Below, piece after piece: positions 16,461-34,175 of a DNA stretch of 34,175 nucleotides (within the stretch, counting starts at the first letter, position 1; the number at the start of each line of letters is the position of its first letter). Source of the stretch: an uncultured Rhodobacterales bacterium (lineage in GTDB: Bacteria > Pseudomonadota > Alphaproteobacteria > Rhodobacterales > Rhodobacteraceae). The notes under the pieces are model-generated. The model did no database searches. It was not told where the DNA came from and saw nothing but the letters and a program-made list of their open reading frames with translations. Where the stretch lies: positions 1 to 34,175 of the forward strand of contig CAZCOX010000007.1 in NCBI GenBank assembly GCA_964500115.1. Reading direction: 5' to 3'. Position numbers and translations under genes: made by a program.

Positions 16461-18032
16461 ATGACGACGACATCCCATGACCGCCTCTTGATCATCGATT
16501 TCGGCAGCCAGGTGACGCAGCTGATTGCGCGCCGGTTGCGAGAGCTGTCGGTGTATTGCGAAATCCACCCATATCAGAACGTGACAGAGGCGTTTCTGAA
16601 AGAGTTTGCGCCGAAAGCGATCATCTTTTCCGGAGGCCCGGACAGCGTGATGCGCGACGGGTCTCCGCGCCCGCCGAAAGCAGCATACGAGATGGGCGTG
16701 CCGATCCTTGGCATTTGTTATGGCCAGCAGGTCATGATGCATGATCTGGGAGGCAAGGTTGAGGCCGGAGAACATGCCACAGCAGAGTTCGGACGTGCCT
16801 ATGTGACACCGTCAGACGCGCGCGATGCGTTGTTGCAGGGTTGGTTCATTGACGGTTCTGGCCGCGAACAGGTTTGGATGAGCCACGGCGATCATGTGTC
16901 CGAAATCGCACCGGGTTTCGAAGTTCTCGGCACATCGCCCGGCGCACCTTTTGCGATCACGGCAGACACAGCGCGTCACTTCTACGCGGTGCAGTTCCAC
17001 CCCGAAGTGCATCACACGCCAAACGGCAAAACGCTGTACGAAAACTTCGTCAAGCTGGCGGGCTTCGAAGGCGACTGGACGATGGGCGCCTATCGCGAGG
17101 AGGCCATTCGCAAGATCAAAGATCAGGTGGGCGACAAAAAGGTCATCTGCGCCCTGTCCGGCGGCGTCGATTCTTCTGTTGCCGCAGCATTGATCCACGA
17201 AGCGGTCGGCGATCAGCTGACCTGCGTGTTTGTCGACCATGGGTTGCTGCGCCTGAATGAGGCGGACGAAGTCGTTGGCATGTTCCGCGACCACATGAAC
17301 CTGCATGTGATCCACGCGCAGGAGCAGGATTTGTTTCTTGGCGAACTCGAAGGCCAATCCGACCCCGAAACCAAGCGCAAGATTATTGGCAAGCTTTTCA
17401 TCGACGTCTTCCAGAAGTACGCGAACGAGATCGATGGCGCGGAGTTTCTGGCGCAGGGCACACTTTACCCGGATGTGATCGAGTCGGTCAGCTTTAGCGG
17501 CGGACCGTCCGTCACAATCAAGTCGCACCACAACGTTGGCGGTTTGCCGGAAAAGATGGGGCTGAAACTGGTCGAGCCGTTGCGCGAACTGTTCAAAGAC
17601 GAGGTACGCGCCCTGGGTCGTGAACTTGGCCTGCCCGACAGCTTTATCGGGCGTCACCCCTTCCCCGGGCCCGGGTTGGCCATCCGCTGCCCCGGCGAGA
17701 TTACGCGCGAGAAACTTGAAATTTTGCGCAAGGCGGACGCGGTCTATATCGATCAGATCCGCAAGCACGGCCTTTACGATGAAATCTGGCAAGCCTTCGT
17801 GGCGATCCTGCCCGTGCGCACCGTTGGTGTGATGGGCGACGGGCGGACCTACGATTACGCCTGCGCGCTGCGCGCCGTCACAAGCGTAGACGGCATGACC
17901 GCGGACTATTATCCTTTCGACCACGATTTCCTTGGCGAGACCGCCACGCGGATCATCAATGAGGTCAAAGGTATCAATCGCGTCACGTACGACATCACAT
18001 CGAAACCTCCGGGGACGATCGAGTGGGAATAA
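16461..18032 (+). CDS. guaA: GMP synthase (glutamine-hydrolysing)
   Basis: [50 protein letters not shown]. Confidence 0.98.
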
Positions 18033-29839: not shown

Positions 29840-30292
29840 ATGTCCGGCGAAACCGACCTCATCAAGCTCTACTCCGCCCGCATTCTGGAACTGGCGGCGG
29901 ATATCCCGAACCATGCGCGGCTCGATGCGCCTGCTATGAGTGTGAAAAAACGGTCGCCGCTGTGCGGATCGACAGTGACGGTCGATCTGAACATCGAAGA
30001 CGGCGTGGTGACGGCGTTTGGTCAGGATGTGAAAGCCTGTGCCCTGGGTCAGGCAGCGGCTTCGGTTGTTGGTGGTGCCATCATCGGCACGACACCAGAG
30101 CAGATTGTCGCTGCGCGGGACGAACTCAAGGCGATGCTTAAAGACGATGGCCCCGACCCGGAGGCCCCGTTTGACGGGTTGGCCGTCCTGCGCCCGGCGG
30201 CGGCGTACAAGAACCGGCACGCCTCGATTTTGCTCACGCTGGACGCGGCCTCGGAAGCGGTTACCAAGCTGCGCGAAACGCAGAGCGCCTGA
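29840..30292 (+). CDS. IscU/NifU N-terminal-like Fe-S scaffold protein
   Basis: LYSARIL, SPLCGS, VKACALGQA, NRHASILL. ATG 29840 follows AAGGGA. Confidence 0.88.
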   Translation: MSGETDLIKLYSARILELAADIPNHARLDAPAMSVKKRSPLCGSTVTVDLNIEDGVVTAFGQDVKACALGQAAASVVGGAIIGTTPEQIVAARDELKAMLKDDGPDPEAPFDGLAVLRPAAAYKNRHASILLTLDAASEAVTKLRETQSA

Positions 30293-30308: not shown

Positions 30309-30347
30309 AAAAAAAAACCGCCGCACTTTGGAAACCAAAGGCGGCGG
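30309..30347 (-). terminator. Strong Rho-independent terminator (minus strand)
   Basis: On the minus strand: CCGCCGC-CTTTGG-TTT-CCAAAG-T-GCGGCGG followed by T9. Confidence 0.88.
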
Positions 30348-30477
30348 GAAAGTCGCGCGTTCGTTGAGGGCCTAAAGCTTCGGAGGCAGGCAACCTCCGT
30401 TGGGACAGTGCATCAGTTGGGACAGGATGCGGGATAAGCTGTCAGGCGGAAAACACGCAGGCAGAAAAAGCAAACAC
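30309..30477 (-). ncRNA. Candidate 3'UTR-derived small RNA / structured trailer
   Basis: About 170 nt of non-coding sequence between the small-ORF stop and the terminator, with two hairpins and two copies of CUGUCCCAAC (plus-strand GTTGGGACAG at 30399-30408 and 30416-30425). Confidence 0.45.
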
Positions 30478-30606
30478 TCAGATCAGAACAGGCAGGTGCA
30501 ACGTCGCAACCAGCATCACCATGAGCGAGACCGCCCCAAGCGCGTCTTGCAGAAGCGCTGTTTCGGCTTTGCTCGTGTGAAGCATGGTTTTGATCCGCTG
30601 CATCAT
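30478..30606 (-). CDS. 42-aa small single-pass membrane protein, putatively SOS (LexA)-regulated
   Basis: GGAGGA RBS 6 nt before ATG 30606; MMQRIKTMLHTSKAETALLQDALGAVSLMVMLVATLHLPVLI, with a hydrophobic C-terminal 21 aa. Confidence 0.78.
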   Translation of the reverse strand: MMQRIKTMLHTSKAETALLQDALGAVSLMVMLVATLHLPVLI

Positions 30607-30620
30607 GTCTGATCCTCCGT

Positions 30621-30694
30621 GTTGCTTATTTGTTCTCATATGGCGGCAGTCATGTAAAGAACTTTTTAAGAACATTTGAGAACAAATGTAGATT
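30621..30694. promoter_or_regulatory. Alphaproteobacterial LexA (SOS) box cluster
   Basis: Perfect GAAC-TTTTTAA-GAAC at 30659-30673; one-mismatch GTTG-CTTATTT-GTTC at 30621-30635; third GAAC at 30680 (GAAC-N7-GATT). Consensus is GTTC-N7-GTTC / GAAC-N7-GAAC. Confidence 0.75.
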
Positions 30695-30703
30695 TTTGAG
30701 AGT

Positions 30704-34175
<3,472 letters not shown>

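Follow-up and report, generated by a model that had tools for sequence, protein, structure and literature searches.

Organization of the locus

Directly behind recG in the window (the whole 34,175-nt stretch of DNA from an uncultured Rhodobacterales bacterium that was analyzed here), the reverse strand carries a compact unit: a predicted promoter with LexA-type boxes, a short open reading frame (ORF) and a structured RNA tail. The features are as follows.

29840–30292, forward strand: SufU/NifU-like gene, convergent with the peptide unit (neighboring gene)
30309–30480, reverse strand: conserved structured 3′ RNA tail with a closing stem, a multiloop with hairpins and a terminator; candidate 3′UTR-derived sRNA
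30309–30348, reverse strand: GC hairpin and U-run, predicted intrinsic terminator (from the fold)
30402–30425, reverse strand: two CUGUCCC motifs, one in a hairpin loop (30419–30425) and one in a linker (30402–30408)
30457–30465, reverse strand: tail motif UCUGCCUGC, predicted to fold with its first six bases unpaired
30478–30606, reverse strand: ORF of a 42-aa single-helix membrane peptide (from translation, profile and predicted model)
30613–30618, reverse strand: Shine-Dalgarno sequence GGAGGA, 6 nt before the peptide ATG
30621–30635, reverse strand: proximal LexA-type box GAAC-N7-CAAC with one mismatch, overlapping the predicted extended −10 and start site
30653–30658, reverse strand: predicted −35 element TTTACA
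30659–30683, reverse strand: distal LexA-type operator, a perfect GTTC-N7-GTTC (30659–30673) abutting the −35, with an extra half-site (30680–30683)
30704–32797, reverse strand, as the peptide: recG, upstream neighbor (NCBIfam RecG)

The original prediction had described a 42-aa ORF with a GGAGGA ribosome-binding site, a hydrophobic C-terminus of 21 residues and a 97-nt upstream region, and all are present as claimed: 97 nt separate the recG stop from the peptide ATG, and Asp21 is followed by 21 residues without charge. Longer starts, giving 53 and 65 aa, were dropped because they overlap the operator and lack conservation.

A conserved single-helix membrane peptide

Members of the peptide family are 36–44 aa long (40 aa in 74 of 93 one-per-genus loci) and share a basic N-terminus, a D-x-x-G motif, a hydrophobic helix and an L-H-L-P motif. 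Residues D21, G24 and P39 are invariant among the 104 peptide sequences compared, but not in the deepest branches, and the helix after the aspartate is free of K, R, D and E in 92 of the 93 loci. The median hydropathy of 2.16 over 19 aa is that of a single membrane helix, and the predicted structure consists of a short N-terminal helix and a long helix spanning residues 13–41 (pLDDT 77). Because the N-terminus is basic, we infer an N-in topology.

Purifying selection on the ORF, which had been named as a check on the prediction, is evident in Marivita, the genus to which named homologues assign the window genome: dN/dS over the last 27 codons is 0.12 for 27 distinct sequences, and the shifted frames give 1.08 and 23. 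Judged by these comparisons, the 42-codon ORF is a real, coding and conserved gene.

LexA-type boxes and predicted promoter

In one-per-genus loci, the perfect distal box is kept in 90 of 93 and the proximal box in 93 of 93. A perfect box would fall within a given 97 nt by chance with P ~0.003, and the complete arrangement of both boxes is unique within the 3.54-Mb genome. One-mismatch boxes in the window are at chance level (25 observed versus 29.3 expected). The perfect box and the one-mismatch box had both been predicted and were found where expected. The additional GAAC half-site upstream also exists, but it lies 6 nt rather than 7 nt from the neighboring half-site. A second perfect GAAC-N7-GAAC in the window, at 16844–16858 on the reverse strand, is in a GC-rich context and probably arose by chance.

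As a positive control, 20 mostly AT-rich boxes were picked from the 118 perfect boxes in the genome. Eleven of the 20 precede lexA, recA, uvrA, uvrD, imuA, imuB, dnaE2, two repair-linked radical-SAM genes, pdeM and an MmcB-like gene. With the predicted operator conserved and the same box standing before recA, lexA, uvrA and imuAB/dnaE2, the proposed LexA-type control of a membrane peptide is supported. Two other boxes in this genome were recorded. One is a perfect box located 23 nt upstream of a gene for a c-di-GMP phosphodiesterase; this agrees with the prediction of a LexA site before pde2 in D. shibae. Another perfect GAAC-N7-GAAC lies 151 nt upstream of a 64-aa ORF that adjoins a dnaE2 C-terminal fragment and has no Pfam or NCBIfam match; this box may belong to the opposite-strand gene instead.

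The promoter elements run in the order TTTACA, 17 nt, TG-n-GAACAA, the last being the predicted extended −10. Several deep-branching members have TTGAC in place of TTTACA, and because of this we infer a sigma70-like promoter that LexA would cover on both sides. A sigma70 consensus scan of the locus called no promoter, which speaks for the view that LexA does not control this ORF through the boxes or that the ORF is untranslated. That view is extremely improbable: the boxes lie on either side of the −35 and over the −10, with a fixed spacing (38 nt from distal to proximal in 82 box pairs) despite variable leader length, the ORF has a codon-position pattern of 0.108/0.008/0.229, and the likely orthologue RSP_2624, considered below, gives a polysome signal (PMC3688512).

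Outside the window, sites resembling those of the cell-cycle regulator CtrA were also seen upstream of the peptide by comparison with its consensus. In 16 of 93 genera, the −35 shares bases with a TTTA-N7-TTAA whose TTAA keeps a constant offset, and in 9 of 93 the proximal box is followed by T(C/T)AA-N7-TTAA. Cell-cycle co-regulation of the unit is therefore possible.

Distribution in Rhodobacteraceae

A profile of the peptide was run on 300 Rhodobacteraceae genera and matched 257, nearly always with a single match per genome; synteny was read from 93 one-per-genus loci among these positives. The ORF is preceded directly by recG in 93 of 93 loci, so that its conservation behind recG, on which the prediction was to be judged, is now documented, and the SufU/NifU-like gene is convergent with the unit in 73 of 93. 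A second peptide match is present in a few genomes (e.g., JABXIA010000239.1). When 30 of the 43 profile-negative genera were rechecked, a recG match was found in 24; the proximal box is present at 19 of these 24 loci, 18 of which have a clear divergent peptide, and the unit is absent from the other five. At the nucleotide level, the intergenic DNA of the unit was matched in 27 of 27 same-genus (Marivita) genomes, 5 of 9 other genera of the family and 0 of 24 genomes outside it.

In 298 Alphaproteobacteria of other families, the profile search found no credible relative: the top match (E 5.5e-4) falls within a 641-aa frame, and not one of the 27 strongest weak matches is preceded by a box. A genome marked as unpublished counts in this tally and nowhere else, and none of the claims depends on it alone. 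Among clusters built at 50% identity, 612 match the profile. All annotations seen are hypothetical or uncharacterized except for three JGI labels, which are apparently spurious. Searches of Pfam, NCBIfam and Rfam gave nothing at or near a curated threshold for the unit, and ESM Atlas (best 0.88, hypothetical proteins) and Foldseek against PDB returned no family for the peptide. The ORF had not been recognized as a characterized gene at the outset, and these searches agree.

The comparative evidence points to a real, near-universal and uncharacterized SOS unit of Rhodobacteraceae. What was known before is that LexA control of the orthologue RSP_2624 was predicted in 2015 (PMC4344238). Subscription papers and most supplements aside, the literature yielded no functional study of the unit and, for Rhodobacteraceae (marine roseobacters, Rhodobacter, Paracoccus), no description of an SOS division inhibitor.

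The probable orthologue in Rhodobacter sphaeroides

The published 19-nt LexA site of RSP_2624 occurs in six public contigs, and in two of them it forms the proximal box of a peptide homologue flanked by recG and the SufU-like gene, which makes RSP_2624 very likely the orthologue of the window peptide. In the 2015 supplement, RSP_2624 is placed in a predicted LexA cluster with a correlation of 0.45, and its function is not given in the rows considered, which come from 11 of 23 files (PMC4344238). Under singlet oxygen, its polysomal mRNA rose by log2 +1.08 (p 0.005), as did that of lexA (+0.86), with a change in total RNA of at most +0.58 for RSP_2624 and recA unmoved; the peptide is absent from the SILAC table of that study (PMC3688512). 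In these rows, RSP_2624 is annotated only as hypothetical and as a predicted target of LexA, and no RNA tail is mentioned (PMC4344238, PMC3688512).

No listed R. sphaeroides sRNA falls between 976 and 1,290 kb, where locus-tag interpolation places the locus. Identity of the window locus with UdsC/RSP_7527 was rejected on a by-eye comparison, with mismatches in the probe, the start codons and the RpoHII promoter.

A conserved structured RNA downstream of the peptide

In most genera, the peptide stop is followed by 110–240 nt that close with a GC hairpin and a U-run; the window tail is ~170 nt long. A simple terminator scan did not list the hairpin and U-run at 30309–30348. Ninety tails were compared, two of which matched the terminator pattern alone, and three further loci have no tail. 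CUGUCCC occurs in 71 of the 90 tails (3.6% in shuffles) and CUGCCUG in 68 of 90 (3.3%), with C(C/U)GCCUG held by 72 of 88. The motifs are present two to four times per tail and are predicted to be exposed, with an unpaired probability of 0.76 for CUGUCCC and 0.71 for CUGCCUG versus 0.43. The genome holds a single such cluster of motifs.

The fold of the window tail has a z score of −4.8, and double changes are seen at 6 of 36 pairs among 26 Marivita tails. An RNA model built from these 26 tails recovers the element in 83 of 95 loci; covariation at 35 of 36 pairs was obtained on the model-fitted alignment and is thus biased toward the model. The tail has a conserved seed, predicted to be unpaired, in a structured 3′ region with a predicted terminator, as expected of a DinR-type 3′UTR-derived sRNA, and this structured 3′ RNA, absent from the original prediction, may be the main effector of the unit. 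A 163-nt metatranscriptome contig covers 30340–30499 and nothing else of 1.4 kb; at a depth of 2.9 and from one study, it could be DNA. The sequencing-run search for the locus gave a single run with a small share. In five tail-less genomes, no clear relocated tail was found with the RNA model (best E 0.011), a search that is weak because the model is Marivita-trained. Three CUGUCCC matches were found in the sRNA table of P. denitrificans, and neither of the two inspected resembles the tail.

A charged or polar face of the membrane helix is a feature of TisB and DinQ, the depolarizing type I toxins of which the original prediction had also been reminded. The unit is small, hydrophobic and SOS-boxed and has a long structured UTR, as do tisB and dinQ (PMC12648545), and a toxin of this kind could serve persistence. 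This reading is disfavored, and in our view very unlikely, because the helix after the aspartate is uncharged in nearly all loci and the tail does not fold onto the peptide ribosome-binding site: tail pairing with that site is 0.09 versus 0.31 for shuffled tails and is higher in only 3 of 39 loci (pairing with the coding part lies outside this prediction). In addition, the leader is ~20 nt long with a strong Shine-Dalgarno sequence, the unit is single-copy and syntenic throughout the family, and no antisense RNA gene was seen.

The peptide alone could also be a SidA-like divisome inhibitor, with a tail that merely stabilizes or terminates the mRNA. The peptide is kept more widely than the tail, it forms one hydrophobic helix in which D, G and P are conserved, and both SidA and YneA target FtsW. 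A mere stabilizer, however, would not require conserved unpaired motifs, and neither the family searches nor the 298 other Alphaproteobacteria revealed sequence homology between the peptide and SidA. We judge this explanation to be unlikely. A complex prediction for one cognate peptide–FtsW pair scored 0.12 against a mark of 0.32 and was weighed neither way.

Complementarity to the ftsZ leader

The tail seed CUGCCUG is complementary to the ftsZ ribosome-binding site CAGGCGGA. In the window genome, tail motif UCUGCCUGC is complementary to the ftsZ leader GCAGGCGGA with one G–U, and the octamer CAGGCGGA pairs over 8 bp with UCUGCCUG, again with one G–U pair. The octamer stands before ftsZ in 19 of 19 genera (division clusters of 20 genomes) and in the window genome, where it is found in just 4 of 3357 called leaders; it is present at ftsZ in 0 of 8 genomes of other families. 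No such shared leader motif was seen for murG, murC, murB, ftsQ, ftsA, ddl, lpxC and one more division-cluster gene, and AGGCAG in the leaders of ftsA (4/19) and ddl (2/15) is not kept across genera. An accessible cognate pairing score of at least 7.5 was reached by ftsZ in 14 of 19 cases, ftsW in 12 of 19 and murC in 0 of 14, and by four other leader sets in 9–23%.

The octamer does not disappear with the tail. Eight of nine peptide-bearing genomes without a recognizable tail keep CAGGCGGA at ftsZ, the tail-less labels resting on the recG locus and the weak model search. The exact octamer is present in 2 of 5 deep-branching tail-bearing genomes and in 1 of 5 genomes without the whole unit, one of which has an ftsZ start that was not located. 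Because the site is also a ribosome-binding site, its survival is expected either way; the co-loss data give no support to the idea that the tail maintains it.

Complementarity to ftsW, dnaA and other leaders

The ftsW leader, which was first examined as a control, carries AGGCAG in 22 of 29 genera and in 21 of 30 further genera (43/59). In the window genome, its AGGCAGA is complementary to the tail motif UCUGCCUGC. Cognate tail–ftsW pairs score 7.41 versus 7.11 for non-cognate pairs (p 0.033), and ACUGCCU is present in 7 of 16 tails from genomes with AGGCAGU ftsW leaders versus 1 of 14 from those with AGGCAGA; in both comparisons, related genomes are not independent. AGGCAG is kept at ftsW in all four checked peptide-bearing genomes without a tail. 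In most genera, ftsW has a leader of its own, with one to four GGCAG/GGCGG repeats behind a conserved hairpin, GACCC..GGGC. Hairpin and repeats together are likely a regulatory element, whichever partner binds.

AGGCAG is not confined to division genes. It is carried by 70 of 3357 leaders in the window genome, and most of these do not belong to division genes. The set includes ftsW, ftsA, a DivIC/FtsB gene, ddl and mreB, as well as genes for a D,D-carboxypeptidase, a lytic transglycosylase and a DNA methylase, which we take to be CcrM; 25 of the 70 genes, chosen by eye, were checked by Pfam. Genome-wide, seed complements are not enriched in leaders above permuted motifs.

The second seed, CUGUCCC, is complementary to GGGACA, which recurs at dnaA starts and in other genera is the most shared hexamer of dnaA leaders: it occurs within 35 nt in 9 of 27 versus 35 of 2914 window-genome genes, and from −60 to +30 in 16 of 27 versus 66 of 2914, with dnaA having been chosen post hoc among 24 leaders with a seed complement. 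By plain duplex ranking with three seeds in the window genome, dnaA does poorly, at rank 96–719 of 2914. The glycine that follows a conserved tryptophan in dnaA (codon 7) is encoded by GGA in 14 of 26 sequences versus ~15% among early glycine codons, which often yields a further GGGACA. Two other candidate targets, pgk and the GTA head-tail connector, have GGGACAG in the window genome and were rejected, as it is present in 1 of 28 and 2 of 23 cases elsewhere.

These results bear on whether division is the process acted upon. An SOS-induced unit could act outside division: the RNA would be an anti-Shine-Dalgarno sRNA with multiple targets or would sponge a protein, and the peptide would tune some other membrane protein. 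Motifs repeated two to four times per tail, as in sponge or multi-target RNAs, the predominance of non-division genes among the AGGCAG leaders, and the persistence of ftsZ and ftsW sites where the tail is absent all fit such a role. Set against it are the 14 orthologous leader sets, in which three of the four that share a motif strongly (ftsZ, ftsW and dnaA) match the tail's two motifs. We regard action outside division as a possibility, on the unlikely side.

Proposed function

The explanation that we favor, tentatively and at somewhat less than even confidence, is a dual-function SOS division checkpoint consisting of a DinR-like RNA and a SidA-like peptide. Comparison between genomes shows that the boxes and the RNA fold are conserved, that the ORF is coding and that the tail is complementary to the ftsZ and ftsW leaders; the function is predicted from these findings. 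DNA damage would, in all likelihood, lead to LexA cleavage and free a ~310-nt transcript. The tail may then act whole or after excision by RNase E, its CUGCCUG base-pairing to CAGGCGGA, the ftsZ ribosome-binding site, and to the AGGCAG of the ftsW leader and, to judge from complementarity, lowering their translation; CUGUCCC would perhaps pair with dnaA and block its translation. The peptide is expected to insert N-in and to bind a membrane protein, by analogy to SidA and YneA most likely of the late divisome.

In its fullest form, the dual-function checkpoint would be a single LexA-repressed transcript whose 3′ RNA halts translation of ftsZ/ftsW and dnaA and whose peptide, of a new family, blocks divisomes already assembled. 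With ftsZ and ftsW shut off by one repeated seed and dnaA by a second, division and replication initiation would halt together. We consider this complete version rather unlikely. Two cautions apply to the RNA part: C/U-rich loops readily match purine-rich leaders, the seeds here being 7–9 bp with a G–U pair, and the ftsZ site is itself a Shine-Dalgarno-like element.

If the dual-function reading is true, the unit would be the family's damage-induced brake on cell division, encoded behind recG, and a second, far more conserved checkpoint of the DinR type, joined to a new small-protein family. It has a named orthologue, RSP_2624, in a genetic model, and it yields a nucleotide-level prediction, seed CUGCCUG against ftsZ CAGGCGGA.

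Comparison with known systems

SidA of Caulobacter crescentus is 29 aa long. It is a LexA-controlled small transmembrane protein that acts on FtsW (PMC4211646), as YneA also does. The window peptide resembles it in being a small transmembrane protein under LexA-type control in an alphaproteobacterium, but differs in its length of ~40 aa and in its conserved RNA tail.

TisB/IstR-1 and DinQ/AgrB, the type I toxin systems of E. coli, likewise comprise SOS-induced small membrane peptides (PMC12648545), whereas the window unit has neither a charged helix face nor an RBS-sequestering fold, and no antitoxin RNA was seen. EcpR1 of Sinorhizobium meliloti is an alphaproteobacterial stress sRNA with C-rich loop seeds and cell-cycle mRNA targets (dnaA, gcrA), and its predicted ftsZ target failed in reporters; unlike the tail, it is not 3′UTR-derived and has another loop motif, and its description makes no mention of LexA (PMC4414408).

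The closest RNA precedent is DinR, a 157-nt sRNA from dinI's 3′ end in Klebsiella pneumoniae that blocks translation by pairing with the ftsZ ribosome-binding site (PMC10907235). Common to both are a short gene with a LexA box, 3′ RNAs of about equal size and pairing with the ftsZ ribosome-binding site, which is predicted here. The dinI protein, however, is a RecA modulator, whereas the window protein is a membrane helix, and the DinR seed is Klebsiella-specific (PMC10907235), whereas the tail seed in Rhodobacteraceae is family-wide and repeated. By analogy, the unit would thus work like DinR and SidA combined, yet as far as compared it belongs to neither.
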